A DNA stretch of 64,000 nucleotides from an uncultured Gemmatimonadales bacterium. Its GTDB lineage: Bacteria; Gemmatimonadota; Gemmatimonadetes; Longimicrobiales; RSA9. Positions 44,578 through 64,000 of this stretch are shown piece by piece (position 1 is the first letter of the stretch; each line of letters begins with the position of its first letter). The notes below the pieces were generated by a model. It was not told where the DNA came from, did no database searches, and saw nothing but the letters and a program-made list of their open reading frames with translations. The stretch covers positions 192,001 to 256,000 of the forward strand of contig CAWCRS010000008.1 in NCBI GenBank assembly GCA_963798085.1, written 5' to 3'. The position numbers were made by a program, and so were the translations under genes.

Positions 44578-47013
44578 GTGAGTGGCCAGGGCAATCGCTG
44601 GCGCCTGCTCGACGATTTCGTGCAGGATCTGCGCATCGCGCTGCGCGGACTCGCGCGCCATCGCGGGTTCACAATCGTCGCGGTGATCACTGTGGCCGTA
44701 GGCATGACGGCCACAGCTTCCATTGCCAGCATGGCAAATGCGGTGTTATGGCAGCTGCTGGCCGTGCCCGAGCCGGAACGCCTCGTCTCCATCTGGGAGC
44801 AGCGGCGAGGCATGACCAGCACCGGGCTCGAGGGCATGCTGCTGCCCGCGCCGCGGGTTCGCGAGTACCGCGAAGCCACCCGCGACATCTTCAGCGGGCT
44901 GGCCGCACACGAGTACACGAACCTGGCGCTGCGTTCCGGCGACCGCTCCCAATCGCTCTCCGGCGTCTTCACCTCGGGCAACTACTTCACGGTGCTCGGC
45001 CTCAGCCCGCTTGCCGGACGCTTCTATGCGGACGATCGCGAGCCGGGCGTGGTTCTGAGCGCCGCACTCTGGCGGGGGCGCTTCAACAGTGATCCGGGCG
45101 TGATCGGCCAGTCGATCCGTCTGAACAGTCGGTCGCTCACCGTGCTGGGTGTGGCGCCGCCCGGCTTCACTGGCGTTGCGTGGGGCTTCCCTGTCGACAT
45201 CTGGGTACCGGCTGTCGCCTACGCCGAAGCCGCGGGGCAGAGCGGCGATGGCTTCATGCTCGTGCCCTTCGGCCGGCTGCGCCCGGGCATCGACCGGCGC
45301 CAGGCCGAAGCGCAGGTCGCCGCGATTGCACGCCGCATTCCGCCCGCGGAGCCGCAGACGACCGTGCAGGGCGCGCGTCTCGATCCCGTGCGCTGGCGAG
45401 GCGATGCGCTGCCGGCTCTTGTGGGATTCCTTGCCATGCTGATGATCACGGCGTTGCTCGTGCTCGCCATTGCCAGCGCCAACATCGCGGGCATGCTCAC
45501 GGCACGAGCAGTGGCGCGGCGGCGCGAGCTGGCCGTGCGTCTCGCCATCGGCGCGGGACGCGGCCGGCTGCTGCGCGAGGCGCTGACCGACAGCCTGCTG
45601 CTGTTTCTGCTGGGCGGCGCCGGCGGCGTGCTGCTCGCATTCTGGGGCACGCGCACACTGTCGCGCATGTCCATTCCCATTCCCATTCCCGTGGCATTCG
45701 ACCTCACACCCGACTGGCGCGTGTTGAGCTTCAGTCTCGCCGTCGCTGCGCTGACGGGTCTGCTGTTCGGGCTGGGCCCCGCGTTGCGTGCGACCGGCAT
45801 CGATGTGATGCGGGCGCTCAAGGAGGGCCTGGGCGTGACCGGCGGCCGGAGCGGCCGGCGCCGCGGCCTCTTCGTGGCCGGCCAGCTCGCGATCTCCGTG
45901 CTGCTGCTGGTTACCGCCGCGCTGCTGGCGCGCTCGCTGCAACGCGGCCTGCACGCGAACCCCGGCTTCGATCCGCACGATGTAACCGTGGCCACCACCA
46001 ATCTCGCGCCGCACCACTATGACGAGCCGCGCAGCCGCGCATTCCACGAGGCGCTGGCCGCGCGCGTGCGGCAGTTGCCGGGCGTGGAAGCGGCGGCGCT
46101 CGCGAACATCGTGCTGCTTTCGGGCGAGAGCACGAGCAACGACGTCGAGGACGGCGATCCCGCCGTGGCATCGCCCCGGCGCACTAACATGCGGTTCAAT
46201 GTGGTCGACACCGCGTACTTCCGCACCATGCGGATGGAGCTGGTCGCGGGGCGCGGCTTCACCCCCGCCGACCGGGCGGGCGCCGGCGACGTGACTGTCG
46301 TGAACGAAACTCTGGCGCGCCGGCTGTGGCCCGGCCTGAGCCCGCTGGGCCGGCAGCTGCGCATGGGGAAACGCATCTTCGACGTGATCGGCGTGGTCCG
46401 TGACGGCAAGTACCAGTTCGTGACCGAGAGGCCGCAGGCGTTCGCGTTCCTGCTCTACGCGCAGAACTTCGAGTCACGCATGGCGCTGCATGTGCGCTCC
46501 CGCCTGCCCTCGGCCACGGTGTTCGCCGAGATCGAACGCGCGGTCCAGGCGCTGGATCCGAATGTGGCACTGGAGAACCAGCAGGCGCTGACGCAGACCG
46601 TGGAACTGTCGCTGTTCCCGCAGCGCATTGCCGCCGACCTCATTGGCCTGTTCGGCCTGGCCGGCCTGCTGCTGGCCGCCATCGGCGTATATGGTGTGTT
46701 AGCCATGCACGTGGCCCAGCGGCGTCGCGAATTCGGCATCCGCATGGCCCTGGGCGCGAGCAGTTCCGCACTGCTGCGCGCGGTCCTGGCACAGGGCGCA
46801 CTGCTGGCACTGGCCGGCGCGGGCATCGGCCTGGCTGCCGCATTCGGACTCACGCGCTTCCTGCGTACACTGCTCTACGGCGTGAGCCCGTTCGATCCAC
46901 CGTCGTTCGCGGCAGTGCCCGTGCTGCTGCTGGCGGTGGCGCTGCTGGCGAGCCTGATCCCCGCCCGCCGCGCCACACGCGCCGACCCGCTCGAGGCCAT
47001 GCGCCAGGAATGA
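44578..47013 (+). CDS. ADOP-type duplicated ABC permease
   Basis: QDLRIALRGLARHRGF, ASANIAGML, REFGIRMALGA, RRATRADPLEAMRQE; GAGGAGG RBS. Confidence 0.9.
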   Translation: MSGQGNRWRLLDDFVQDLRIALRGLARHRGFTIVAVITVAVGMTATASIASMANAVLWQLLAVPEPERLVSIWEQRRGMTSTGLEGMLLPAPRVREYREATRDIFSGLAAHEYTNLALRSGDRSQSLSGVFTSGNYFTVLGLSPLAGRFYADDREPGVVLSAALWRGRFNSDPGVIGQSIRLNSRSLTVLGVAPPGFTGVAWGFPVDIWVPAVAYAEAAGQSGDGFMLVPFGRLRPGIDRRQAEAQVAAIARRIPPAEPQTTVQGARLDPVRWRGDALPALVGFLAMLMITALLVLAIASANIAGMLTARAVARRRELAVRLAIGAGRGRLLREALTDSLLLFLLGGAGGVLLAFWGTRTLSRMSIPIPIPVAFDLTPDWRVLSFSLAVAALTGLLFGLGPALRATGIDVMRALKEGLGVTGGRSGRRRGLFVAGQLAISVLLLVTAALLARSLQRGLHANPGFDPHDVTVATTNLAPHHYDEPRSRAFHEALAARVRQLPGVEAAALANIVLLSGESTSNDVEDGDPAVASPRRTNMRFNVVDTAYFRTMRMELVAGRGFTPADRAGAGDVTVVNETLARRLWPGLSPLGRQLRMGKRIFDVIGVVRDGKYQFVTERPQAFAFLLYAQNFESRMALHVRSRLPSATVFAEIERAVQALDPNVALENQQALTQTVELSLFPQRIAADLIGLFGLAGLLLAAIGVYGVLAMHVAQRRREFGIRMALGASSSALLRAVLAQGALLALAGAGIGLAAAFGLTRFLRTLLYGVSPFDPPSFAAVPVLLLAVALLASLIPARRATRADPLEAMRQE

Positions 47014-47343
47014 TGGCATCGCCGTGACGCGCCGACCGTGTGTGTGTTACCACGACCGGCCCGCCGGCGCACCCATCTTGCGCCCTCTGCGGCGACCGCT
47101 TAGGTATCGGCGGGAATTGGCTGCTGCGGCCCCTCGGTCCCGTGACTGCGCGGGTCCCTCGTATCACCTGCCGTGGCGACCGGAAGCAATCCGGGCGCAC
47201 CCCCACGCCTCCAGCCCAATGCCGGGCACGCTGTCCGCATCGAGGCGCTTCGCCCGCTTACTTGAACAACACGAGCGTACCGATGACGTGACCGGTTCGT
47301 GCCGGCGCGTGGTCGTCATGCTGGCTCACCACCGCGGAGCTCC

Positions 47344-48435
47344 GTGGACCCGATCGCATCCGAGGCCGTTGCCACCCTCACCACCGCCGTGACGTCGCTG
47401 CTGCCGCCTCCGGTGGATCCGTCCGTTCCACACGCCGTACTGGTCACGCCACTGCGCATTGCCACCACTGGGCTGGGCGGTTTCGTGGGTCTGAACCCGG
47501 ACCCCCAGGGTGAGATTTTCGGGCGGCGCATCCGGGCGAGAGTGGACGTGAACGTGGGCGCGTTGACCGCGACCGGACTCGATTCCGCGCTCGCTCACGT
47601 GACCAGCGCGGTGATGACGACGGGTCGCGAAGAGTTGTCGCAGCTCGGAATCCTGAAGCTCGGCGTGCTCGAGCTGGGTCCCCAGCCCGATGCCAGCGCC
47701 GCACCGCCTGCCGCCGCGCGCCGCGCCGTGTCGTTCAATGTGCTGTACGAATTCCTGAAGCTGCCCGTGCAGGCCGGCGGCGTCATCCAGACGATCCCGC
47801 TCGACATCGACAGCACCCTGGCGGTGAACGATCCGCGCGTGCTGCTGCGCGGGCCGTTCCTGCCTCCCTCGTTGGATCTCTTCGAAGTCTTCGACGACAA
47901 CGCGGCCACCACGGCGTCGCCTTCGGCATGGTCTTTCGACACGGCCGACGCGGCCATCATCCAGACGGCAGACATCACGGGTGGCGCAAACGCGCCGACG
48001 CCCGACAAGCCCGGAACGTACTGCGTGCTGCGCACCACGCCGGTGCGTCCACCGCTGCGCGACTTCACCATGGCGGCGGAGGTGCTCACTACCTCGCCGG
48101 GCGGCATCGGCATGGTCTTCCGCTTCGTCGATGTGAACAACTTCTATTTCGCGCTGCTCGACAGCCGTAACGGCTTCCGCATGCTGGGCAAGAAGGTGGC
48201 GGGCGTGTTCGGGGCGCTGCAATCCGGAGGTCTGGATGCGGCGGCGGGTTTCAGCGCGGGCACGCTCGTGCGCGTGCGTCTGGTGGCCCAGGGCGATGAG
48301 TTCCGCCTGCTGATCGACGGTCGCGGCGTGCTCGACGGCCGGGATGATGAGCTGGCGGCGGGCGGGCGCGTGGGTTTCCTGACACGTCATTGCACGGGCG
48401 CGCGCTTCTTCGACCTGATGCTCGTCCGGCTGTAA
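47344..48435 (+). CDS. Putative tail terminator/cap-like domain fused to a ConA/LamG-like beta-sandwich
   Basis: GTG start with GGAG RBS; lies directly before the sheath; C-half GIGMVFRFVDVNNFY...FRLLIDGRGVL...GRVGF...ARFFDL resembles a lectin-like jelly roll. Confidence 0.5.
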   Translation: MDPIASEAVATLTTAVTSLLPPPVDPSVPHAVLVTPLRIATTGLGGFVGLNPDPQGEIFGRRIRARVDVNVGALTATGLDSALAHVTSAVMTTGREELSQLGILKLGVLELGPQPDASAAPPAAARRAVSFNVLYEFLKLPVQAGGVIQTIPLDIDSTLAVNDPRVLLRGPFLPPSLDLFEVFDDNAATTASPSAWSFDTADAAIIQTADITGGANAPTPDKPGTYCVLRTTPVRPPLRDFTMAAEVLTTSPGGIGMVFRFVDVNNFYFALLDSRNGFRMLGKKVAGVFGALQSGGLDAAAGFSAGTLVRVRLVAQGDEFRLLIDGRGVLDGRDDELAAGGRVGFLTRHCTGARFFDLMLVRL

Positions 48436-49613: not shown

Positions 49614-50108
49614 ATGGCGAATACGCGGGTGTACACGGGGGCAGATGGCTCGATCACACTCTCGGCGGGGCAGGGTGCCGAAGGCGACGCCGCTAACGCG
49701 GTGATCACGGCGTTCGACACCATCTCGGTGGGTCGCGTGCAGAACGTGCGCGTCGAGGTGCAGTCCGCCGTGAAGGCGTACCACGAGATCGGCCAGCGCT
49801 ACGCGACCGAGCTGCGCCCCGGCAACGTCACGGTGCGCGGCACGATCGGCCGCGCCATGATCAACGGCGCCATGCTGCGTCTGCTGCTGGGCGAGGCGGC
49901 CAATGGCCGGCCCAAGGCGAGCTGGGCGCAGCCTTCCTTCAACATCACGCTGCTCGCGGAAAACGCGGCGCAGCCGGGCGTGCGCAACACGCTCACGCTG
50001 CACGATGTGAAGCTGGAGTCGTGGGTCTACGCCATGCCCGAAGATGAATTCCTGGCGGAAGCGCTCACCTTCCAGGCGCTCTACGTCACCGTGGCGGATG
50101 AAGGCTGA
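49614..50108 (+). CDS. Tail tube protein
   Basis: 164 aa directly after the sheath; beta-rich VGRVQNVRVEV...HEIGQR...GNVTVRGTI...LTLHDVKLESW...EALTFQA. Confidence 0.75.
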   Translation: MANTRVYTGADGSITLSAGQGAEGDAANAVITAFDTISVGRVQNVRVEVQSAVKAYHEIGQRYATELRPGNVTVRGTIGRAMINGAMLRLLLGEAANGRPKASWAQPSFNITLLAENAAQPGVRNTLTLHDVKLESWVYAMPEDEFLAEALTFQALYVTVADEG

Positions 50109-51657: not shown

Positions 51658-54600
51658 ATGGCCACGGTACTCGAGCAGATCCAGGCTGCGCTGTCCGGCA
51701 ATGACGCGAACGTTCGCGTCAGCGCGCAGGCCGGCAACCTGCAGGGCATCGGCGGCCTGGTCGCGGGTCTCGCGAAGAGTCCGCCCGCGCAGATCACGAA
51801 CCTGCAGCGCGCCTTCGCCGCGCTCGAGCTGCCCGACTTCCCCCTGGGCGATTTCGTCTCGCGCATCAGTGACGCGCGCGCGGCCCTGCCCACGGATGCG
51901 GGGGGCGCGCTCAGCGGCGTGCTGGGAGATCTCTCGAACATCGAGCAGGAGTTCAGCGGCGGCATCGCGTCGTCGCTGGCCAATGCACTCGTCGCCTTCG
52001 AAAAGGTGCAGGCGCTGGCCGACATCCGGTTCCACTGCACGAATGGCGCAGGCAGTGCACCGGCGGGCGGCGGCAGTGCGGGCGGAGCGGGCGGAGCGGG
52101 CGGCGCGGGCGGCGCGAGTGGCTCAGGCGGTGCCGGTGGCACGGGCAGCGCCACGGCGCCGCCGCCCACACCCATGGCGCTCGCGGTGGCGCAGGCTGAC
52201 AGCGTGTTCGACCGACTGCCGGTGCCCTTCGATCTGCGCGCGCTGCTGCGCTTCCTGCACGACAAGACAGCGTTCCGCCGCGAACCGCTGTTCCCGGCGG
52301 TGCTGCCGCTGTTCGACGATCTGCGCGATCCGCTGGACACGCTCATGGTGTGGGAGTCGCTGACACCGGCGCAGGTGCTGCAGCAGATCGCGACGGCGCT
52401 GCAGGATGCGAACACGCATGTACGCACGGGTGTGGAGCGCACGCTGGGTCCGCTGTTCGCCGACCTCGATGGCTTCATGGCCACCATGCCGGCGGCGGAC
52501 CTCGCCCGCATCGCGGACCGCATCACCATCCGTCTGGGCGAGCTGCGCGCCGCGGTGCAGGCCGGCAATGTGGGCGGCACAGGCGGGGCCGTGAGCGAGA
52601 TCGGTGCGCTGCTCGACGAATACGATGCGCTGCGCCCCGCACTGGCGCCTCGCATCAATGCGGTGCCGGCGCTGCGTACACGTCTCGCCGAAGTGGCGGA
52701 GGATCTGGACCTCGGCATGGCCAGCATGGTCTCGATCCTGAAGCCGGGCGGCGGCGCGCTCACTCGCCTGGCCATGCCGCGCTTCGAATGCGCTGAACCG
52801 GCTGCAGATCTGGGCGCAGGGCATGGCCGACTGGCTGCACAATGTGGCCGGCGCCATTGACCTCTCCGCCATCCAGGGCCCCATCGGCACCATCGCCGGC
52901 CGCGTCGAGTCCGTGGCCGAGGGGCTGCAACAGGGCATTACCACGATCACGGTGGACGTGCAGAGCGTGTTCACGACCGTGCAGTCCGTGATCGACACGC
53001 TCGATCCTGCGCAGCTGCAGGCGGAGGTGCAGGCCGCAGTCCAGCGTTTCCGCGACGAGATCATTGCGCGTGTCAGCGCCCTGGTCGGCCCGGCGCGCGC
53101 GGCGGTGCTTCAGGCTGTGACCGCGATCGATCAGGCCGTCGGTGCATTCGATCCGGGCAATGTCATTGCGGCCATCTCCGCTGCCATCAATGCGCTGGCC
53201 GGCGTGCTGGGCGATGGTCCCATCGGCCAGGCCATGAGTGCCGTGCACGATGGCCTCGAAGCGGTGGCGAAGCAGCTGACGGCGCTCTCCTTCACACCCA
53301 CCGCCGACTCCGTGGTGAGCGTGATCGACTCCCTCCGATCCACGCTCGAGGCCATCGATCCGGCTCTGCTGCCCTCGCCGGCAGCGGATGCGCTCAAGTC
53401 CGCCGCATCCGTGCTGCCGGGCGATCTCGAGCCCATCACGGATCCCATCATCGACAGCTTCGGCGAGATCGTGGACAGCGGGCCGACCCCGGTTCTCGAG
53501 CAGGTGCGCGATGCGCCCGCGCAGTTGCTCGAGGCCGTGCGCAGCTTCGATCCCGAATCGCTGGTCGGCGATCAGCTGACGGGACCGTTCAATAGCGTGC
53601 TGCGCTCCATGGAGCAGTTCCGGCCGAGCGATCTGCTGAAGCCAGTGGGCAAGGAGCTGGACGCCTTCAAACAGCAGCTGCGCAAGGCAGCCAGTCCGGG
53701 GCGCGCAGCGCAGGCGCTGCAGGCACCGTTCGACGCGCTGAAGCAGACGCTCGCGAACTTCGATCCCAATGCACTGGTGCAGCCGCTGCAGGGGGCGCTC
53801 GCAACCGTGCGCGACGGCCTGCTCAAGGTTGTGCCGGTGGATGAGACGTTCGCCATCATCGACGAAGGTCTTGCCGCCGTCCAGCGCGTGCTTGACACCA
53901 TGGACGCGGTGGTGCGAGTCCTGCGCCGTGTGCACGAGGCTGCGAATTCGCTCGTCGGTGTGCGCGGACAGCTGGACGCGTGGGTGAACAATGTACTGGC
54001 GCGCGTCGAATGGCATTACGGACACGTCGAGCCTGGTGCCGTTGCTGGACAACCTGCGCACCGCGCTGGATGGCACGCGCGCGTCGGCGATCGGTCCGCG
54101 TTTCGCCGCGGGCACGGCCACGGCGCGTGCTGCGCTCGACAGCGTGAACGGCACGACCCGTCTCGCGTCGCTGATCCAGGCGCATCGTGCCATCCCGCGG
54201 CCCGCGCTGCAGGCGCTGCCGGCCTCGGCGCAGAAGACCGCACTGCAGGCGGTGCTGGATCGCTTCGATCCACTGCTGCCCGCGTTCGGTTCGCCATGGC
54301 AGCAGCTGGGCGCGCTGCGCCAGGGACTCGTCGAGGGTGACGCCGAGCTGCAGGCGCTGCTGCCCGTGTGGGACGATCGCTTCCACTTCGCGGGCGGCTC
54401 ACTCGACGAGCTGCGTCAGGCCCAGCCCACCACGGCGCAGTTGCGCGCGTTCGCGCAGCAGGCGCTCGAGACGCACTTCGTCGAGCCCATTGCCAACGCC
54501 CTGTCGTTTCTCGATCCGGCAAGAGAGTTCCTCGATGCTCTGCTGACTCCCTTCGAGGATCTGATCACCACGCTGCACGCGCGCCTGGCCGCACTGCTCA

Positions 54601-55121
54601 CGGGCCCGGCATCACTCACGGCGATTCGCGATGGGCTGGGCCGCATCGACGACCTGGTGAAGGGACTGGACCTCGAGTTCCTGCGCACCAGCCTGCACAC
54701 GCTGTTCGACGACATTCGTCACAAGCTCGACGACGTGAGCCCGCAGAAGCTGGCGGAAGCGCTGGACAGGAGCTTCGCGGCGGTGCTGGACGGCATCACG
54801 ATCGATCTGATCCTGCCGCCCGCCAATGTGAAGCAGATCGACAAGACATACAGCGACGTGGTGGAGAAGCTGCGGTTGCTCGACCCGTCGCACATCGTGA
54901 ACAATGTGGTGAAGCCGCTCTTCGAGCAGAAGGTGGTGCCGCTCGTCGACAAGTTCGACGTCTCGCCCTTCATCGACACGATCAACGATCGCCTGGGTTC
55001 GCTCGACGATGAGCTGCGCGCGGAAATCGGGCATGTGAATCAGGCGTACATCAAGCTGCTCGCGGCACTGCCCTCCGGCAGTACGCCGAGTGCCAGCGTG
55101 TCCGTCTCGGTAGCCGCATGA
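51658..55121 (+). CDS. Large helical-repeat protein A1 (~1150 aa; tape-measure/apolipoprotein-like); frameshifts ~52780 and ~54011
   Basis: Three ORF pieces align end to end with the intact paralog 58217..61669. Confidence 0.8.
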
Positions 55122-55146
55122 GCAGACGAGCGGCAGGGCGGTGCGC

Positions 55147-57615
55147 ATGGTGATGGGCGAAGTGCTGACGCAACCGCAGCGCATGCGACGCGCAACCGTC
55201 ATGGATCCGGGCATTGCCCTGATCAATGACCTGACCAGCCTGGCCACACGACTCGCGCAGGACGCGGAACAGAGCGCTCAGCTTGCGCAGGTTGCACGCA
55301 GTGCGCTGGAAGACGCAGTCCGCACACTGGTGCAGCAGCGGCTGGGAGCGCTGAAGTCGGTATTGCCGAAGCTGGCGGACTGGCTGCTGCGCGTGCTGCG
55401 CGCGACCACCGGCATCGGGCCCGAGCTGATCCCCACGTCTTCCCCCGCGGGTGTGCTGTCTCTGATCAGCCAGCTCATCGACACGATGGCGCAGGCGGCG
55501 CAGAACGGAAATGCCGCGCGCATTCAGCCGTACGTCGCCGAGCTGCTGGGCATCGTGCAGCACGATCTGGGGTTGAGCCTGCCCGCGCTCGAGACTGCCT
55601 TCTGGGGCGTGATCGACTCCATCATTGCACGTCTCGAGGCACTGCCGCTCGAGGCGGATCGCCGCGAGCGCGAGAACCGGCTGGACACGATTCGCGCACT
55701 GCGCCGCATGCGCCGGCTGGTACGCGGCCGGTTCCCGCTGCCCGCACTGGATGCCGATCGCATAGCTGATGCTCTGGCGGCAACGCTGCGCACCATCGAC
55801 GCGGCCGCGCTGGGCCGCGCGGCGCAGTGTGTGGCCCAGGCGATCGAGAAAGTAGCCGATGCGGGCCAGGCCATCGAGCAGCTGGTGCCGCTCGGCGCGC
55901 TGACCGGGTTCCGCAGCCTGGGCGCGGCTGCCGCGGTGGCCAGTGGGGAGACCTACTGCTGGTACGCCAGCTGGCTGTATGAGGAGGACGTGATCATCAA
56001 TGCGGCGGGCACGGAGATCCGGCGCGGCGACACCGTCATTGCCAGCGGCACGGGCCTGACCTTCGCCAGCATCCCCGACTTCACGACGGCCACGCCACAC
56101 TACACCTTCAACTGCGTCAGCCTCGCCACCATGGAGACGCTGACCAACGTCGTGTTTGTGCTGGCCGACGCCATCATCGTGGTGTGCCATCTGGTGTCGA
56201 TCGAAACTGGCGACGTCGCTTCCAATGCCCTGAATGTGGGCGCCTTCGGCTTCCTGGGCGTCATGGGCAAGCTGGTGGGCAGGAGTCCGCTCGCCTCCAG
56301 CGGTGTCGAGGACTGGGTCTACCCCCTGGCGGCCTCGTTCGCGGGCTCGTTCCAGGGTATTCACACGAAAGCGTCGGGCGGCAACATCTTCCTCATGTGG
56401 GTGACGCTGTTCCTGCCCGACTTCATCGAGGCGGTCATCTACAAGCAGGTCTCGCTCATTGCCCGCGACCTGGTGCTGTCGCTGCTGACACTGATCAACT
56501 ACGACGGGCCGCTCGAGTCGTCCGGCTCACCCGATACGCGCCCGCTCAACCGCATTCACATCGACGGCGTGGCCTGGGTGGGCGAGTGGCTGGGCAGTCT
56601 GGTATTCATGACGTTCTATCCCCGCGAGGAGTACGCGCAACCCTTCGCCTCGGGCGGGCACGCGGCCAAGTTCTTCCTGTTCTGGGACCTGTTCCTTAAC
56701 AACCTGTTCTACGTGCTGGGCCGGCTGGTGGGCTGCATCCTGGGCATGTCGGTGGCGCAGGTGTTCGACTTCGACACATGGGTGAAGCCCATGCCGCTCA
56801 AGCTGCTGCTGCTCAATCCGCTCATGTTCATTGTGAGCCTGTACATGGACAAGGAAGGGGACACGAAGGACGGACATTACAACCCGACCGGTGCGGAATA
56901 CGCCGGTTACCCGGACAAGGCGTCGTCGCCCTATCAACTGCCGTTCCCGAAGGACAACACGTACTACCTGGTGCAGGGCAACCAGGGATTCTTCAGTCAC
57001 CACCACCTCAATTTCGATCAGCAGTACTCGTACGACTTCTCCATGGACCAGGACGATCCCATCCTGGCCAGCCGCCCGGGCACGGTCGTCGATTATTTCG
57101 ACTGGATCAAGGACAACACCAATCCGGACACAACGGATATGACTGCGGCGACGACGGAAGCGACCGCGTCCGGCTTCCTCGTACCCGGCCAGACCACGTC
57201 CGACAGCTGGAACTTCATTGCCATCCGCCATGATGTGGACGATGCGGGCGCCGCGCTCCCGCCGGATAACACGCACGACAAGGCGGCGGGCGGCAGCGTG
57301 GTGACGACGTACGCGATCTACGGTCACGGGCGGAAGGGCAGTGTGCGCGATGCATTCCAGGCGAGGGGCGTGGCCGCCAACGCGATCATCGGTACGAAAG
57401 TCAAGCAGGGCCAGCGCATCATGCGCTCCGGTGACACGGGCGTGAGCTTCAACAATCACCTGCACATCATGGTGCAGGAAGGGCCGGCGAGCACGACGGC
57501 GCCGCCGGTTTCGCGGGGCGCGCTGTCGCAGCCGACGCTCCCGTTCGTGTTCAAGGACGCGGGCGTGCCAAAGCACCTGGACTGGTACGAGTCGAGTGTG
57601 ACGGAGGTAGTCTGA
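55147..57615 (+). CDS. Protein B1: helical N-domain + multi-TM region + M23-like peptidase
   Basis: QGNQGFFSH...YSYDF, ILASRPGTV, VKQGQRI, SGDTGVSFNNHLH; several hydrophobic segments mid-protein. Confidence 0.8.
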   Translation: MVMGEVLTQPQRMRRATVMDPGIALINDLTSLATRLAQDAEQSAQLAQVARSALEDAVRTLVQQRLGALKSVLPKLADWLLRVLRATTGIGPELIPTSSPAGVLSLISQLIDTMAQAAQNGNAARIQPYVAELLGIVQHDLGLSLPALETAFWGVIDSIIARLEALPLEADRRERENRLDTIRALRRMRRLVRGRFPLPALDADRIADALAATLRTIDAAALGRAAQCVAQAIEKVADAGQAIEQLVPLGALTGFRSLGAAAAVASGETYCWYASWLYEEDVIINAAGTEIRRGDTVIASGTGLTFASIPDFTTATPHYTFNCVSLATMETLTNVVFVLADAIIVVCHLVSIETGDVASNALNVGAFGFLGVMGKLVGRSPLASSGVEDWVYPLAASFAGSFQGIHTKASGGNIFLMWVTLFLPDFIEAVIYKQVSLIARDLVLSLLTLINYDGPLESSGSPDTRPLNRIHIDGVAWVGEWLGSLVFMTFYPREEYAQPFASGGHAAKFFLFWDLFLNNLFYVLGRLVGCILGMSVAQVFDFDTWVKPMPLKLLLLNPLMFIVSLYMDKEGDTKDGHYNPTGAEYAGYPDKASSPYQLPFPKDNTYYLVQGNQGFFSHHHLNFDQQYSYDFSMDQDDPILASRPGTVVDYFDWIKDNTNPDTTDMTAATTEATASGFLVPGQTTSDSWNFIAIRHDVDDAGAALPPDNTHDKAAGGSVVTTYAIYGHGRKGSVRDAFQARGVAANAIIGTKVKQGQRIMRSGDTGVSFNNHLHIMVQEGPASTTAPPVSRGALSQPTLPFVFKDAGVPKHLDWYESSVTEVV

Positions 57616-57619
57616 TCGC

Positions 57620-58213
57620 ATGAAGATCAAACCGATGCTCGGCGACTGGGAGGTGCCTCACATTGCAGGCATCGAGACGCTCGAGCGCCGCGAGCTGGCG
57701 GAGCTGGAGATTCCCGGGCGCACGGGCAGCCTGTTCCAGGACCTGAACGCCGCGCCCACGCGCATTGCCATTCGCGGCAGCCTCTTCGGCGATGCGAACC
57801 GCGATGACTTCCTGCAGCAGGTGCGCGACAAGTTCCGCGCAGGCGAGCCGGTCACGTTCGTCGCCGACATCATTACCGCGACTGAGGTGCAGTACGTCCT
57901 CATCGAAACCATGCATTTCGCGGAGAGCGGTGTTGCGCCCGATGAGACCAGCTACTTCCTGGTGTTGCGCGAGAGTCCGCCGCCGCCACCGCCACCGGAC
58001 CCACTGGGCGGCCTCGATGCGGGGCTGCTGGATCAGGCGGGCTCGCTGCTCGACACGGTGACGGGCGCGCTCGATGCCCTCGACGCGCTGGCCAACATTC
58101 CCGACCTGCAGGATCCCACGCCACCGCTGCGTGGCATTCTGGACGGTGTGTCCGGCGCGCTCGATGGACTGGGCGGCGTGACCGGCTCCATCAGCGATCT
58201 CTTCGGCAGCTGA
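57620..58213 (+). CDS. Tube-initiator/hub-like protein (Mu gpN N-domain / P2 gpU-like) with helical tail
   Basis: ELEIPGRTGSLFQDL...IAIRGSL...RAGEPVTFV...VLIETMHFAE...YFLVLRE, then poly-Pro and LD/G-rich helices. Confidence 0.6.
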   Translation: MKIKPMLGDWEVPHIAGIETLERRELAELEIPGRTGSLFQDLNAAPTRIAIRGSLFGDANRDDFLQQVRDKFRAGEPVTFVADIITATEVQYVLIETMHFAESGVAPDETSYFLVLRESPPPPPPPDPLGGLDAGLLDQAGSLLDTVTGALDALDALANIPDLQDPTPPLRGILDGVSGALDGLGGVTGSISDLFGS

Positions 58214-58216
58214 CGC

Positions 58217-61200
58217 ATGGCGACCGTCTCCGCGCAGCTCGACGCCAGCATGGCCGGCAATGATGTGTCGGCACGCGTGGGCACGCAGATCACGCAGCTG
58301 AACGGCATCGCGACGCAGCTGGCCACGCTGATCCAGCATCCGCCCGGTGCTGTGAACCAGCTGTTGCGCGCGTTCGGCGATCTGCCGCTGCCCGAGTTCC
58401 AGGTCGCGGCGCAGCTGTCCACCCGGCTGATCGAGATGCGCGGCGCCGTGCCCACCGATGTCAGTGGACTGCTGCGTGGCGTGCTCGATGGCATCGCCCA
58501 ACTGCAGACCGACTTCGGCGGTGCACTGGGTGGCCAGCTGGCGAAGGCGCTGCTGCTGATCGAGCGACTGCACGCGCTGACGCAGATCGACCTGCGCTGT
58601 CTGGGTGGCGCTTCGTCGAGCACGGCGACACTGACGGCGGGCGGGGCAGCGGGCGCAACTGGCGCGAGCGGCGTGGCGGCGGCGACCGGCACGAGCGCGG
58701 CCACTGCACCCTCGCCGTCCGCCACGCAGGACACGGTCGCACGTGCTAACACGATCCTCGATGCCATACCGCAGCCGCCCGGCATCGAGGGTGTGCTGCG
58801 CTGGGCGCACAGCGGCACCGTGATCGAACGCAATGAGCCGCTGCTGCCCGCCGTGATCCCGGTCTGGGATGATCTGCGCGACCCCGTGGATACGCTGATC
58901 ACGTGGGACACCATGACACCGGCGCAGCTGGGCGTCGAGCTGACCACGTCGCTCACCGACACGGCCGCGTTCCTGCGCGAGACGCTGGCACGCGAGCTGG
59001 AGCCGCTGGCCGCGGACATCAGCGCGCTGCTGACGCCGCTGCCGCAGGCGGATCTCACGCGCATTGCGGATCGGCTGACCGCGCGTCTCGTTGCGATCGG
59101 TGCTGCAGTGCACGCCGGCAACCTCAGCGGCATGAGTCCGGCCGCGACGGAAGTGCACGCGCTGCTCGATGAGTACAGCACATTGCAGGCGACACTGCCC
59201 GTCACGCTCGCGACCGACGCGACGCAGCTGCGGGGCCGGCTGGCCGAGCTGGCGGATGATCTGCATGAAGGCTGCTGCCACGCGATCTCGATTCTGCGTC
59301 CGGGCGGCGCGGTCCTCATCAATCTTCCGGCCGGCCTCGAGGCCAATGCGCTGGCGGACCTGCGCAACTGGCTCACCGGCGTTTCCGACTGGCTGGAAAA
59401 TGTGCTGAGCGCCGTCGATCTGGACGCGCTGCAGGCGCCCATCAGGCAGCTGGCGAGTGGTGCGCAGGGTGTGGCCGCTTCGCTGGATGAAGCCCTGGCC
59501 ACGGTCGTGGTGCAGGTGCAGAGCCTGTTCCAGCAGCTGGAATCGCTCATCGATGCGGTCGACATCGCCGCTATAACGACCAGCGTGCAGACCGCGATCA
59601 CGCAGTTCCGCACCGAGGTGGTGCAGCGCATCACGGGTGCGCTCGCTCCTGCGCGCACGGCGATCGAACAGGCCGTTGGCGCACTCGCCGCTGCGGTCAA
59701 TGGTTTCGACCCCGCCGACATTGTGGCCGCGCTGCACGATGCCATTGACCGGGTGGCGGGCGTGCTGCAGGACCCGGGCGTGACCGCGGCGATCGGCCAG
59801 ATCAAAGGTGTGATCGACACCGCCACGCAGCAGGTGCAGTCGCTTTCCTTCACGCCCGTGACCGATCAGGTGATTGCCGTGATCGATGCGCTGAAAGGGA
59901 AGGTGCAGGAGATCGACCCGGCGCAGCTGCCCGATGCCGCAAAGGCGGCGTTAGCGGCGGCCGCGCTGGTGCTGCCCTCCGATCTGCAGCCCATCACGGA
60001 CCCGATCGTGGTGGATTTCAGCGGTCTGGTGGACAGCGGACCCGTGCCCGTGCTGGAGCAGGTGAAGCAGCAGCCGGCGAAGCTGCTCGAGCAGGTGACG
60101 CGCTTCGAGCCGTCGAAGCTGATCGGTGATACACTGTCGCAGCCGTTCCAGAAGCTGCTGCGCGACCTGGATGCGTTCCGGCCGAGCAAGCTGCTCAAGC
60201 CGCTGGGCAGGGAGCTGGACACCTTCAAGCAGACGCTGCTGCGCAGCGCCTCGCCCAGTCGTGCGCTGCAGCCTCTGGCCGGTCCCTTCGGCGAAGTGAC
60301 GGCCGCACTGGGCCGGCTGGATCCGACACAGCTTACCAAGCCGATCGACGACGCACTGGCCGAGGCCGGCAAGAAGCTGTCAGACCTGCTGCCCGTGCAG
60401 GACCTGTTCGATGCGATTGATGCAGTGCTCGGCGCCGTACGCCGTTTTCTCGACAGCTATGACGCCATGCTCGCGCTGCTGCGCCGCCTGCACGGGCTCG
60501 CCGATGCCCTGGCGAATGCGCCCGCCGACCTGGTCGCCTGGATCAACCGCGTGCTGGACAGGATCGAGCAGGTGCCGGATCCCGCGGCCGTCAATCTGGG
60601 CGTCGTAGCCCTGCGTGATGCGGTCGATGCGACGCGCGGCGCCGCCATCGGGGCGCGCTTCAATGCGTTGACCGCGACATCGCGGGCCGCCTTGGACAGT
60701 GTCGATGGCGGGAACCGGCTGTCCGCGCTGATCACGGCGTATCACGGCGTTTCGCGACCCGCGCTCGAGGCATTGCCCGACTCGCCGACGCGCACATCGC
60801 TGCTTGCGGCACTGGACCGCTTCGATCCGCTGACCCCCTCGTTCGGTGCGCCCTGGCTGGCATTGGGTCAGTTGCGCAGCGCAGTGGGCGGCGCCCGCGC
60901 GGCGCTCGAGGCGCAGCAGAGCCAGTGGGACACCGACTACCACTTCGCGGGCAGTGCGCTCTCCGATCTGCGACGCGATTCCGCCACACCGGCCGAACTG
61001 CGCGCGTTCGCGCAGGAGCTGCTGGACGCGCAGCTGGTGCAGCCGATCGCGGCCGTGAGTGCATTCCTGGAGCCGGCGCGCGTGGTCTTCGGCAGCATTC
61101 TCGACGGCGTGGAAGATCTGCTGGGCCGCGTGCGCAGCCGCCTTGATGCGCTGCTGCTCGGGCCGCAGTCGGTGCAGGGTCTGCGCGATGCCATGGGTGA

Positions 61201-61669
61201 CATTGTCGCCGACGTGACCAGCCTGAACGTCGATTTCCTCCCTGACAGCCTCAACACGCTGTTTGGCGCGGTGCGGGCCAGACTCGAGGCCATCTCCCCC
61301 GCAGCACTGGGCAAGCCGCTGGATGACGTGTTCAAGGCCATCCTGGACACCTTGAGCCTCGAGGTCGTGCTGCCGAAAGCGGAGCTGCAGGCGCTGGACG
61401 CCACTTACGAAGCGTTCGTCGCGAAGATCCGTCCGCTCGATCCGGGCCAGCTCGTGATCGAAGCCGTGCAGCCGGTCTGGGATCAGACTGTGCTGCCCCT
61501 GCTGGCGGCGTTCGATCTCACGCCCGTGATCGAGGCGCTGATCGAGAAGCTGCATTCCCTCGATGACAGTCTGCGCGCGGAGCTGGAACGCGTGAACGGC
61601 TCGTACCAGCAGCTGCTCGCCGCCATCCCGTCGGGGGATGTCAGCGTCAGCGCGAGTATCTCGCTATGA
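58217..61669 (+). CDS. Large helical-repeat protein A2 (1150 aa), paralog of A1
   Basis: Intact ORF; shares MATV...GND, DDLRDP.DTL..W...TPAQ, LSFTP..D, DLxPITDPI, DSGPxPVLEQV, LDRFDPLxPxFGxPW with A1. Confidence 0.85.
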   Translation: MATVSAQLDASMAGNDVSARVGTQITQLNGIATQLATLIQHPPGAVNQLLRAFGDLPLPEFQVAAQLSTRLIEMRGAVPTDVSGLLRGVLDGIAQLQTDFGGALGGQLAKALLLIERLHALTQIDLRCLGGASSSTATLTAGGAAGATGASGVAAATGTSAATAPSPSATQDTVARANTILDAIPQPPGIEGVLRWAHSGTVIERNEPLLPAVIPVWDDLRDPVDTLITWDTMTPAQLGVELTTSLTDTAAFLRETLARELEPLAADISALLTPLPQADLTRIADRLTARLVAIGAAVHAGNLSGMSPAATEVHALLDEYSTLQATLPVTLATDATQLRGRLAELADDLHEGCCHAISILRPGGAVLINLPAGLEANALADLRNWLTGVSDWLENVLSAVDLDALQAPIRQLASGAQGVAASLDEALATVVVQVQSLFQQLESLIDAVDIAAITTSVQTAITQFRTEVVQRITGALAPARTAIEQAVGALAAAVNGFDPADIVAALHDAIDRVAGVLQDPGVTAAIGQIKGVIDTATQQVQSLSFTPVTDQVIAVIDALKGKVQEIDPAQLPDAAKAALAAAALVLPSDLQPITDPIVVDFSGLVDSGPVPVLEQVKQQPAKLLEQVTRFEPSKLIGDTLSQPFQKLLRDLDAFRPSKLLKPLGRELDTFKQTLLRSASPSRALQPLAGPFGEVTAALGRLDPTQLTKPIDDALAEAGKKLSDLLPVQDLFDAIDAVLGAVRRFLDSYDAMLALLRRLHGLADALANAPADLVAWINRVLDRIEQVPDPAAVNLGVVALRDAVDATRGAAIGARFNALTATSRAALDSVDGGNRLSALITAYHGVSRPALEALPDSPTRTSLLAALDRFDPLTPSFGAPWLALGQLRSAVGGARAALEAQQSQWDTDYHFAGSALSDLRRDSATPAELRAFAQELLDAQLVQPIAAVSAFLEPARVVFGSILDGVEDLLGRVRSRLDALLLGPQSVQGLRDAMGDIVADVTSLNVDFLPDSLNTLFGAVRARLEAISPAALGKPLDDVFKAILDTLSLEVVLPKAELQALDATYEAFVAKIRPLDPGQLVIEAVQPVWDQTVLPLLAAFDLTPVIEALIEKLHSLDDSLRAELERVNGSYQQLLAAIPSGDVSVSASISL

Positions 61670-61694
61670 CGGTGCGCGGCCGGGAGGCGTGGTC

Positions 61695-64000
61695 ATGGTG
61701 ATGGGCTCCGTGCTGGTGCAGCCGCAGCGCGTGCGCCGCGGCCGGCACGCGGATCCGGGGATCTCGCTGTTCACGGATCTGTTCAGCGTGATTACTCGCC
61801 TGTTGACGGACGCGAAACTGGGCGGCCGGCTGGGCGACATCGCCGGCGAGGCGCTCGTCGCCAATTTCCAGCGCATTGCGACGGAGCGCGTCGCGCGCAT
61901 CGCGCAGGCGGGCCCGCACGCGGTGCAGCGGCTGCTCGATCTGCTGCGCGCGATAACCGGTGTCAGTGCGACGGTTCGCATCGCGGCGCCGGCGGACGCG
62001 CTGGAACTCGCGCGTCAGCTGCTGGACCACTTCGCGGATGGTGTGGAAGGGGTTACCGCGGTGCGTCTGCGCCCGCATGTCGCGGCATTTCTGGACATTC
62101 TCGAGACCGACCTGGGCTTCAGCCTGGTGCAGGCGGAGGCCGAGTTGTGGCGCATCGTCCACGACATCATCGACCGCCTCGAAGCCGAGCCGCCGGAGCC
62201 GAACGTGCGCGCCCGCGAGAATCGCCTCGAGGTCATCTGTCTGCTGCGGCGCATCCTGCGCGTACTCTCGGGTTTCACCATGCCGCGCATCAATGCGGAT
62301 GGGCTCGCCAGCCTCATGGCGTCGCTGCTGGCCGGCCTCAGGGCGCCGGCGTTTGCCGCCCGCCTGCGCTGCGTGGCGCGCGCACTGGAGAGCGCGGCGC
62401 GTACCGGCCAGAGCGTGACCGAGCTGGTCGCGATCGGCTCGTTCGCGGAGTTCCGCAGCCTGGGCGCGGCCGCCGCGGCGGCGGAGCAGCAGGAACGCTT
62501 CTGCTGGTACGCCACGTGGGTGCTGGGGAAGAACACGGTGATCAGCAAGGACCGGTCAGAGATCCGCTTTGGTGGCAAAGTCGTCATGACTGGCGAGAAC
62601 CTCGGCCTGGCCGATATCCCCGAGTTCCGCGACACGAACACAGTCGACGGCAAGCCGTTCTTCTACACGTACGCCAGGGTCGATCTGGAGGCGCTCGACA
62701 CCATCGCGTTCGTGAGTGCCGTGGCGGCGGACGCACTCATTGTGCTGTTCCACACGATCTCAATGGAGGAAGGCGACTTCATCGCCAACCTCGTAAACAT
62801 GCAGTTTGCCATGCTGGCGGGCATTTACAAGGCGGCCGCCGCCAGGCCCATGCTGCCGCTCTGGGCCGAGAACTGGCTCATTCCAATGGGCATCACGATT
62901 CCGGCCTCGCTCGAAGGCATCCACACGCACGCCGCCCCGGCGCAGGGCGCCATTCTGTGGCTCACGCTTTTCGGACCGGATTTCGGCGAGGAACGGTTGT
63001 ACCGGGGGTACGGCCTGACCGCGCGCAACGCGCTGTTATCCATCCTCACACTGGCGAATCACAGGAACGCGCCCAACGGCGTGCCGGAGAATCACAAGGT
63101 CGCGGCCGGCCTCAACGACCTGCTGGGCTTCGTGGTCAGCATGCTGTACAGCCTGAAGGTGCCACGCGACGAGTGGGGCCTGGTCAATACACAGGTGACG
63201 CCGCGCGACTTCAATGCGGGCCTTGTCTTCGGCTGGGTGCTGGGCTTCGCATCGCTGGGCTGGCTCACCGGTCGCGTGGTGGGCGGGCTGCTGGCGTGGG
63301 CGATCACGCGCGAGGTGGCGCCCTGGGCATGGTTCGGCCGGCGCTGGTGGTCCCTCTTCGAGCACTGGCTCTGGTACGCCAGCTTCCTGTACTGGTGGAT
63401 CGAGGGCGACACCGACGGTGGCCATTACAACTCGGCCGGCGGACCGGCGTACGCCGGCTATCCGCCGAAGGAGAACTCGCCGTACACACTGCCCTACGTG
63501 GCTGGAAACTCGTGTTATGTGGGCCAGGGCAACATGGGCCTGTTCAGCCACAACAAGCTGAATGGCGACCAGACGTATGCCATCGACTTCGCACTGGATC
63601 AGGACGAGAAGATCCTGGCCGCGCGCGCCGGCACCGTCGTCGACTGGTTCGACTGGGTCACCGACGACGAGAACATCAGGACGGCATGGCCTGACGCGGC
63701 CGCCGCGGACAATCCCACGGGTGTGCAGCCGGTCGTGCTGCCGGATGGAACATCCCAGACCACATCCTCGGTCAAGAATTTCATCCTCGTGCGTCACGAC
63801 CGCGACGAAGACGGCAACCTGCTGCCCGTGGGCACGTTCAATGACACGCACGATCGGGGCGCGGGCAACACGCCGACACGCACGTACACGGCGTACCTGC
63901 ACGGTCGCAAGGGAAGCATCCGCGAAGCGTTTGCCGCACGCGGCATTACGCCCGTCAACATCATGGGTCAGGTACTGCTGCGCGGGCACTGGATCATGCG
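61695..64000 (+). CDS. Protein B2, paralog of B1 (helical + multi-TM + M23-like); runs off window end
   Basis: Own translation (not in ORF track): GGGAGG RBS, MVMGSVLVQPQRVRR...FRSLGAAAA...CWYATW...GQGNMGLFSH...YAIDF...HGRKGSIREAFAARG, start and end motifs in the same frame. Confidence 0.82.
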   Translation, partial: MVMGSVLVQPQRVRRGRHADPGISLFTDLFSVITRLLTDAKLGGRLGDIAGEALVANFQRIATERVARIAQAGPHAVQRLLDLLRAITGVSATVRIAAPADALELARQLLDHFADGVEGVTAVRLRPHVAAFLDILETDLGFSLVQAEAELWRIVHDIIDRLEAEPPEPNVRARENRLEVICLLRRILRVLSGFTMPRINADGLASLMASLLAGLRAPAFAARLRCVARALESAARTGQSVTELVAIGSFAEFRSLGAAAAAAEQQERFCWYATWVLGKNTVISKDRSEIRFGGKVVMTGENLGLADIPEFRDTNTVDGKPFFYTYARVDLEALDTIAFVSAVAADALIVLFHTISMEEGDFIANLVNMQFAMLAGIYKAAAARPMLPLWAENWLIPMGITIPASLEGIHTHAAPAQGAILWLTLFGPDFGEERLYRGYGLTARNALLSILTLANHRNAPNGVPENHKVAAGLNDLLGFVVSMLYSLKVPRDEWGLVNTQVTPRDFNAGLVFGWVLGFASLGWLTGRVVGGLLAWAITREVAPWAWFGRRWWSLFEHWLWYASFLYWWIEGDTDGGHYNSAGGPAYAGYPPKENSPYTLPYVAGNSCYVGQGNMGLFSHNKLNGDQTYAIDFALDQDEKILAARAGTVVDWFDWVTDDENIRTAWPDAAAADNPTGVQPVVLPDGTSQTTSSVKNFILVRHDRDEDGNLLPVGTFNDTHDRGAGNTPTRTYTAYLHGRKGSIREAFAARGITPVNIMGQVLLRGHWIM

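Follow-up and report, generated by a model that had tools for sequence, protein, structure and literature searches.

The 64,000-nt stretch analysed here (the window; G000 is the window's own genome) carries near its end an operon for a contractile tail, in which two A-B gene pairs flank a gene resembling a tube initiator. Protein A is long and helical, and protein B ends in a domain of the M23 peptidase type. A sequence-only reading of the region had proposed that the two pairs arose by tandem duplication of one A-B cassette. We concluded that the feature is real but was misread as a simple duplication: by the trees described below, the cassettes are two old lineages, each of which occurs alone in other organisms, and the locus is a contractile injection system (CIS) variant with a probable carrier-payload slot. 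In the reading that we favor, to which we assign a probability of roughly 0.55, A would be a carrier linked to the initiator, and B a swappable antibacterial payload that is ejected into the bacterial envelope on contraction.

Two cassette lineages in one operon

The gene order across both cassettes is X-A1-B1-initiator-A2-B2-B3-hub, because a third B gene lies before the hub gene, past the window end (Table 1). The colinearity and near-equal length reported for the A genes held up. A1 aligned with A2 in three frames (41, 44 and 48% identity); read through with an X at each break, it gave 1151 positions without a stop, compared to 1150 in A2, and was 44% identical to A2 over ~1150 columns. B1 and B2 were likewise colinear (blastp E 5e-177; 38% identity over 850 columns), and their alignment contained every one of the six motifs quoted in support of their kinship. 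B3 was 52% identical to B2 and 40% to B1. A tblastn search revealed no further A or B copies in G000.

Trees were built under LG+G4 and subjected to the approximately unbiased (AU) test, using 29 and 32 chosen rows with near-duplicates and many distant rows omitted. A1 clustered with the single A of G021 and that of locus L038 (support 100/100), to which it was 55% and 58% identical, respectively, and A2 clustered with P0002-P0005 and the Trueperaceae locus L024. B1 clustered with the B genes of G021 and L038; B2 and B3 were sisters (100/97) and clustered with P0184 and L024. The A and B trees were congruent for the G000 copies. The test ruled out A1 and A2 as sisters (p-AU 3e-8) and B1, B2 and B3 as one clade (p-AU 8e-52), so that the proposed tandem duplication of the whole cassette was not upheld. 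Judging from these trees, only B2-B3 is a plain tandem duplicate.

The nearest relative of the operon comes from the Longimicrobiales and the same family as the window genome. The backbone was nearest to G021 (initiator 78%, spike 72% and baseplate J 73% identity), where an A1/B1-type cassette stands in the order X-initiator-A-B over two contigs; thus, A1-B1 matches the backbone although it occupies an unusual place. By its placement in the trees, A2-B2, which stands where a cassette normally does, is the second lineage. The two could have come together when a related operon recombined with this one, or they could stem from a duplication of great age with differential loss afterwards, and either fits. 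P0002 (A2-like, 59%) and P0024 (B1-like, 67%) come from the same source, each listed with a longest contig of 37,988 bases, and may represent a second two-cassette locus or a crossed pair.

We collected 62 loci via B, several of them near-duplicates, and counted gene order in those with enough flanking DNA. A stood immediately upstream of B in all 44 loci with enough upstream DNA, the initiator preceded A in 25 of 26, and the hub followed the last B in 50 of 54. One cassette (initiator-A-B-hub) is therefore the normal state; two or more B genes were present in 4 of the 62 loci, and two A genes in none. Ten loci showed no tail gene: nine were contigs shorter than 6 kb, and in the tenth (L013 of G480) tail genes lay just upstream of the examined stretch, with the initiator 8 kb before A. 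Hence, A and B homologs lying apart from each other and from tail genes, the pattern named earlier as evidence against pairing, did not occur among the 62. In G480 and G1429, A-B was relocated as a block to the operon end. These data support the earlier idea of A-B cognate pairs as far as the genetic unit is concerned (gene order, congruent trees, block moves); a special co-evolution of A with B was not visible in the distances, as shown below.

The A1 gene contains two frame breaks, while A2, B1, B2 and B3 contain none. Comparison of assembly G000 with 50 orthologues of a same-genus genome gave 11 frame breaks in 68.7 kb, distributed over 10 genes, some of which could be real or errors of the other genome; the 10 of 50 genes affected therefore call for caution with apparent pseudogenes in this assembly. 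In our frame reading, 9 of the 11 shift in the same direction as both A1 breaks. At the measured rate, the probability of at least two breaks in A1 was 0.11, and that of none in A2, B1, B2 and B3 was 0.18. Of 97 conserved columns A1 kept 88% and A2 91% (family median 84%), and the GC content at third codon positions (GC3) of A1 was 0.84-0.86, like its neighbors. The ratio of nonsynonymous to synonymous substitution rates (dN/dS) against G021, a check proposed with the original observation, was 0.31-0.39 for A1 and 0.36 for B1, with dS near saturation. One DNA sequencing run contained a small share of A1 words, and its contigs closely matched short pieces of the locus; no RNA run with A1 words was found among those listed.

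These results bear on the idea that the first cassette is a displaced, decaying remnant with real breaks in A1, such that only A2-B2-B3, with or without B1, would be in use. The confinement of breaks to A1 within the two cassettes agrees with it, as do the missing initiator ahead of A1-B1 (no initiator relic was recognisable in the 33-base gap between X and A1) and the lack of a second mapped genome with two A genes. Opposed to it are the frame breaks in orthologous genes elsewhere, most of which shift in the same direction, the likewise broken wedge-like gene (L001:10027-12826, broken once, a single open reading frame (ORF) of ~800-930 amino acids (aa) in most relatives), and the stop-free, well conserved A1 with its normal GC3 and its dN/dS, subject to the saturation just mentioned. 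The sequence-only reading had itself raised such decay: the breaks are borne out in the assembly, and no sign of decay was seen in A1. We consider decay improbable, and assembly error the likelier source of the breaks than true mutation on these comparisons.

Proteins A and B and the slot after A

Protein B is, as predicted from its model, probably a cell-wall-cutting M23 enzyme. An AlphaFold2 model of B1 from 16 sequences (predicted local distance difference test, pLDDT, 77; predicted template modelling score, pTM, 0.71) showed a helical N-domain (~20-245), a small beta insert, a hydrophobic helical bundle (~326-570) and a C-terminal M23-like domain (~582-816). The C-terminal domain matched M23 folds at Z 9-10 (top Z 10.3, root mean square deviation (rmsd) 3.9, 138 residues), and the top 24 fold matches all fell on it, mostly to entries named LytM or M23. 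Foldseek matched it to M23 with a best E of 1.5e-3, and Pfam PF01551 stayed below cut-off. H618 and D630 were found in 62 of 62 B sequences and H771 and H773 in 61 of 62, in a set biased towards intact M23 domains because it was collected partly with motifs from that domain; we take these residues to be the M23 zinc ligands (His, Asp, His) and the catalytic His.

Known M23 peptidases (LytM, lysostaphin, LasA, pseudoalterin, the phi29 tail enzyme, the cyanophage A4 ejection protein) resemble B in fold (Z 8-10, rmsd ~3-4 A over 120-146 residues) and in the His, Asp and HxH residues. In contrast to them, B has large insertions and a 570-residue helical and hydrophobic N-part without a confident structural match. 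The 12-residue spacing from the first His to the Asp is presumably LasA-like. Hydropathy plots gave one to three transmembrane-like windows per copy. The M23 part was the best conserved region of B (family median 51%), and the hydrophobic part was the most divergent among B1, B2 and B3 (29-42%).

A profile search with protein A returned 620 representatives at E 1e-30 or better; among the best 150, full-length relatives were mostly 1110-1200 aa long. The protein is acidic and rich in Leu and Ala and is, by its sequence, a chain of Pro-punctuated amphipathic helices, whose conserved prolines recur at intervals of ~23 residues from 609 to 726 and a second time near 1028-1076. Profile comparison against a reversed control detected internal repeats at residues 500-750 and 1000-1150 (97-98% vs 8-60%); at 400-550 the signal was not clearly separated from the control (97% vs 92%). 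No curated family exceeded its cut-off in A save for a short Baculo_PEP_C match. Solved structures matching A were generic helical proteins (designed helical bundles, apolipoproteins, viral heptad repeats, tape measures), and because the tape-measure matches (PHROG E 0.009; PDB E 2e-4) rank among these, they are not specific. Structure prediction without an alignment gave a pLDDT of 41, and in the ESM Atlas A fell in clusters below 0.9 only. Homology of the initiator's helical tail to A was rejected (hhalign probability 10%, reversed control 12%). The B N-domain matched A 917-1073 at 85%; the controls, reversed A and 20 column shuffles, gave 49% and <1%, respectively, a weak hint that the two segments may be homologous. 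Prediction of a complex from part of each protein, A2 (430-1145) and B2 (12-252), scored 0.00. Initiator-A fusions were found in 9 of the 150 best A representatives, and therefore the N-terminus of A is tied to the baseplate.

We also considered whether A is structural, that is, a tape measure or an initiator extension that wraps or anchors the baseplate, with B a baseplate tail lysin clearing the tube path and the second cassette a set of interchangeable parts. The near-constant length of A, the weak tape-measure matches and the initiator fusions would all suit such a role, and the accessible text of PMC11915804 describes a helix-rich domain of the Mu initiator that touches the wedges. Likewise, the hub of cyanophage A-1(L) bears a lytic peptidase domain according to the accessible text of PMC10966104, and both the cyanophage A-1(L) entry and the phi29 tail enzyme were among the fold matches of B. 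This explanation is rather unlikely, considering that the tape-measure matches are unspecific, that the tape-measure position is held by gene X, which varies in length, that two complete-looking loci lack A, and that A-B can sit at the operon end.

What follows A varied among loci collected without reference to B. A tube-only search yielded 12 new genomes, of which 11 were mapped (G826, with its tube at a contig edge, was omitted); one mapped locus ended after the chaperone, leaving 10 that were informative. A was present in eight of these, and seven had DNA beyond A (G1489 is cut inside A). A full B followed A in G1013, which is the same locus as L025. In G1429 the B after A stopped just short of the M23 domain, and the first B of G480 ended at the same place; these two genomes (G480:C10:78647-84342 and G1429) also had B variants in which large domains are inserted behind the N-terminal part. 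A 1320-aa RHS-repeat protein stood directly after A at the operon end in G1284 (L159:14638-18597), making this the third genome, with G480 and G1429, to have the A module in that position. In G1125, A was followed by an NHL beta-propeller protein and a 924-aa unknown, and in G628, G707 and G1323 the hub came directly after A (G628 and G707 have near-identical layouts and are probably close kin). The remaining two loci gave no A match; in both, a second gene resembling the initiator precedes further large genes. In G1274 (L155:6813-10641) this initiator is fused to OmpA and peptidoglycan-binding domains and precedes a tyrosinase, and in G1162 (L150:9551-14713) it precedes a beta-helix/TIG-repeat protein. 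The tube-anchored loci therefore indicate that A varies less than the gene after it, and that B is only one of the partners A can have. Of the two roles first suggested for the pair, alternative payload modules gained support because other genes, or none, fill the slot after A; hetero-oligomeric tube contents would be a matter of inference.

The tail machine and its closest known systems

By the markers tested, the operon is a headless contractile tail of the Mu type and not a member of the Afp/PVC superfamily; we draw this from a Mu-like gene series combined with the lack of head, terminase, eCIS (extracellular CIS) ATPase and lysis families among the proteins scanned. None of the operon's proteins, nor any of 79 flanking proteins from five other genomes, matched a head, terminase, eCIS-type AAA or lysis family; the scan covered 79 of 143 ORFs, those nearest the operon, and was limited to ORFs of at least 120 aa at E 1e-6, and small holins could therefore be missed. 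Portal genes were absent from the operon and the scanned flanks, and PF03237, the one terminase family searched for, was absent from G000 (90% complete). PF00004 was not found among the 79 flanking proteins, whose NTPases were AFG1, sigma-54 and STAND proteins.

Table 1. Features of the operon. Numbering past 64000 is continued on contig C8 (position in L001 + 61000 = continued window numbering).
Feature	Position	Strand	Remarks
Terminator-like protein, probable; C-terminal levanase-type carbohydrate-binding-like domain	47299..48435	+	start uncertain; conserved operon gene 1
Contractile tail sheath, 358 aa	48523..49599	+	PF04984 and PF17482 above cut-off; PHROG tail sheath E 3e-24
Tail tube, Phage_tube_2 type (not T4 gp19/Afp1 type)	49614..50108	+	PF18906 in family
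Tail assembly chaperone-like, 157 aa	50108..50581	+	conserved place after tube; putative function, by position
Gene X, Pro/Ala-rich, low-complexity, 348 aa	50578..51624	+	tape-measure position
A1, putative helical carrier protein, lineage 1	51658..55121	+	two frame breaks, near 52785 and near 54011; probably errors of the assembly
B1, 822 aa, lineage 1, C-terminal M23 peptidase (predicted)	55147..57615	+	AlphaFold2 model, fold matches, tree
Tube initiator, probable, Mu gp43 / DNA_circ_N type, 197 aa, poly-Pro linker and helical tail	57620..58213	+	
A2, putative helical carrier protein, lineage 2, intact single ORF, 1150 aa	58217..61669	+	
B2, 836 aa, lineage 2, M23-bearing partner	61695..64205	+	205 bases beyond window end
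B3, tandem duplicate of B2	64213-66663		followed by hub gene
Hub, spike, PAAR, gp25-like, baseplate J	66667-71061		conserved order
Wedge-like gene (one frame break) and three fibre-like genes	71027-79357		

The gene that separates the two cassettes is a DNA_circ_N-type tube initiator by weak but concordant matches, in line with its original description: its family carried PF07157 in 6 of 22 members (best E 0.005), DUF6046 in 6 of 22 and phrog_184 in 11 of 22, and it fell in Atlas clusters at 0.96-0.97 whose members carry PF07157 in 13-32%. PF18906 matched 12 of 18 aligned tube members (best E 4e-8), the window's own tube giving no match, and PF06841 matched none of the 18. Among 15 scanned members of the family of the operon's first gene, each phage terminator family matched a single one, at E 0.12-0.18, and levanase chains matched the C-terminal domain of this gene at E 0.006; in some relatives the gene consists of the N-terminal 150 residues only. 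The chaperone-like protein had no family match in library scans. Gene X was disordered and without a family match, and its relatives (315-458 aa) share mainly the C-terminal motif LA..L...L..QA.R.GVDL. Downstream, we found PF05954 (below cut-off), PF04717, PF05488, PF04965/PF10934 (below cut-off) and PF04865, plus PHROG matches; the hub showed a weak YqbQ-like match. One fibre-like gene (L001:14331-16268) has an N-terminal helix-hairpin-helix (PF12836) and C-terminal repeats of ~13 residues. A scan for promoters and terminators gave signals at chance level. Window 44578-47013 and other ~800-900-aa window ORFs resemble what we take to be ABC permeases of the duplicated-permease type.

The accessible text of PMC11915804 gives the Mu tail as gp39 sheath, gp40 tube, gp41 chaperone, gp42 tape measure, gp43 initiator/N protein, gp44 hub, gp45 spike and gp46-48 wedge. 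On that account the window operon repeats the Mu gene series in its order; both have hub and spike as separate genes and a DNA_circ_N-type initiator with a helical C-terminal part. The window operon differs from Mu in that no head or packaging genes were found, in its PAAR gene, in the disordered X in place of a recognisable tape measure, and in the insertion of A and B after the initiator.

The eCIS (Afp/PVC/MAC/SLP), as presented in the accessible portions of PMC6899500 and PMC8213781, are similarly headless and patchily distributed over phyla, with sheath, gp25, baseplate J and PAAR, and they too have toxin-like neighbor genes including peptidoglycan hydrolases (EAT10). In contrast to the eCIS of those accounts, the window operon has a PF18906 rather than a PF06841 tube and gave no match to a fused VgrG, an Afp15-type ATPase, Pvc16_N (0 matches in 15 members of the terminator-like family) or DUF4157 (none of the scanned operon proteins matched). 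Separate ORFs encode hub and spike in G000 and relatives, with NF033848 far under cut-off. G000 also contains a second, canonical eCIS on contig C1 at ~80800-104400 (L168:12828 to L169:16402), with genes for sheath, T4 gp19 tube, Pvc16_N, an AAA domain, CIS_tube, a spike OB domain, gp25, baseplate J and DUF6519; the sole PF06841 match of G000 lies on C1. The AAA ATPase of this locus may act in trans on the window machine.

The closest working analogy to A and B, compared by description, is with Tme of Streptomyces davawensis (PMC11126660) and Sle1 (PMC13277306), which the accessible texts characterize as tape-measure-related, initiator-associated CIS effectors with variable C-terminal domains. 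They share with A and B long helical and hydrophobic parts and an exchangeable C-terminal functional domain. They differ in going with DUF4157 in eCIS of the VgrG type, as far as those texts describe, whereas A and B lack such a Pfam match, are two genes and carry an M23 peptidase.

A weak similarity (E 6e-4) linked baseplate J to diffocin CD1371. The R-type tailocins, such as R pyocins, diffocins and PBSX, are headless phage-type contractile tails that lack an ATPase and have an adjacent holin/endolysin lysis cassette. The window operon departs from them in that no lysis cassette was seen in the ORFs scanned, in the variable large-gene slot between initiator and hub, and in its conservation across phyla, R-type tailocins typically being lineage-specific prophage relics.

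Alternatively, the machine could be directed at the cell that makes it, as the cytoplasmic systems of Streptomyces are; B would then be an autolysin at the membrane, serving to release particles or to carry out programmed lysis, and A would position B. Without a holin or endolysin family in the scanned flanks release needs another route, B combines hydrophobic helices with a wall hydrolase, and tape-measure-related effectors acting on the producer are known from the accessible texts of PMC11126660 and PMC13277306. The three fibre-like genes and the PAAR tip, by their presumed roles, suggest external targets instead, and several loci lack B or have RHS and other large proteins in the same slot; we hold out little prospect for a self-directed machine.

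Proposed function and its meaning

In the carrier-payload reading, the operon would build a headless contractile tail of Mu-type architecture. A would serve as a dedicated cargo carrier, an acidic chain of ~1,150 residues made of short amphipathic helices with its N-terminus tied to the initiator, and the gene after A would encode the payload, which here is B. The helical N-part and hydrophobic helices of B would bind to and travel with A in or on the particle. Contraction of the sheath would push both proteins into the envelope of the bacterium attacked; there, A and the hydrophobic part of B may engage the membrane while the M23 domain, as its modelled fold suggests, would cut peptidoglycan cross-links and so weaken the wall. 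With two old A-B lineages and the tandem B3, G000 would thus have two carriers and three payload variants. More tentatively, and at clearly less than even odds, we suggest that the operon family is a new CIS class with its own loading route: in place of an AAA ATPase and DUF4157, an apolipoprotein-like A anchored at the initiator would set the slot for B, RHS or other enzymes, and G000 would hold an array of two functional carrier lineages and three payloads.

Several observations weigh against the carrier-payload reading. The near-constant length of A would also fit a structural role. In three of the seven A loci no gene stands between A and the hub, and therefore A does not always have an adjacent payload; some members can dispense with A, as neither G1162 nor G1274 gave a match to it. 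B variants retain one and the same enzyme and differ over all domains, unlike toxins with swapped tips. Distances correlated no better between A and B (Spearman 0.81) than between A and tube (0.81) or B and tube (0.80), and therefore indicate no special A-B co-evolution. Copy number in homologous loci fitted one cassette as the rule, with two A genes absent also from the 11 mapped tube-anchored loci; retention of both cassettes is therefore argued from G000 only. There is only an ~11% chance of two or more errors in A1 at the rate estimated from the assembly, and among the contigs listed for the DNA run none bridges either A1 break. Lastly, the location of A and B in the particle is inferred.

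The operon family was found in records of Gemmatimonadota, Pseudomonadota, Chloroflexota, cyanobacteria, sulfate reducers, Actinomycetota and Deinococcota. Tube searches in four other groups gave matches in 3 of 301, 4 of 301, 6 of 251 and 3 of 201 genomes, centres included (~1-2%). A was present in 2 of 73 genomes of the window's family. Across 401 genomes of the phylum, with two candidates scored per genome, full-length B matches occurred only in G000; the other 214 matches were weak (E 5e-12 or higher), with short M23-type stretches among those listed. No relatives of A were found in plasmids, of B in IMG/VR, or of the tube among 50,697 phage records.

The literature searched, which left most subscription journals uncovered and in which supplementary locus lists could include members, gave no description of the operon family, A or B; the accessible portions of PMC11566945, PMC12998442 and bioRxiv 10.64898/2026.08.24.746745 contain none. 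A metagenomic CIS screen discarded loci with fibre and tape-measure genes but no ATPase, according to the accessible text of PMC12210884. A cultured carrier of the operon exists, Hahella ganghwensis DSM 17046 (locus L029), so that the system is directly testable.

Cargo selection and loading by contractile injection systems are only partly understood. If A is a carrier, the family would offer both a novel way of loading cargo and a supply of antibacterial enzymes that hydrolyse the cell wall, and the double cassette of G000 would be a rare natural experiment on A-B specificity.

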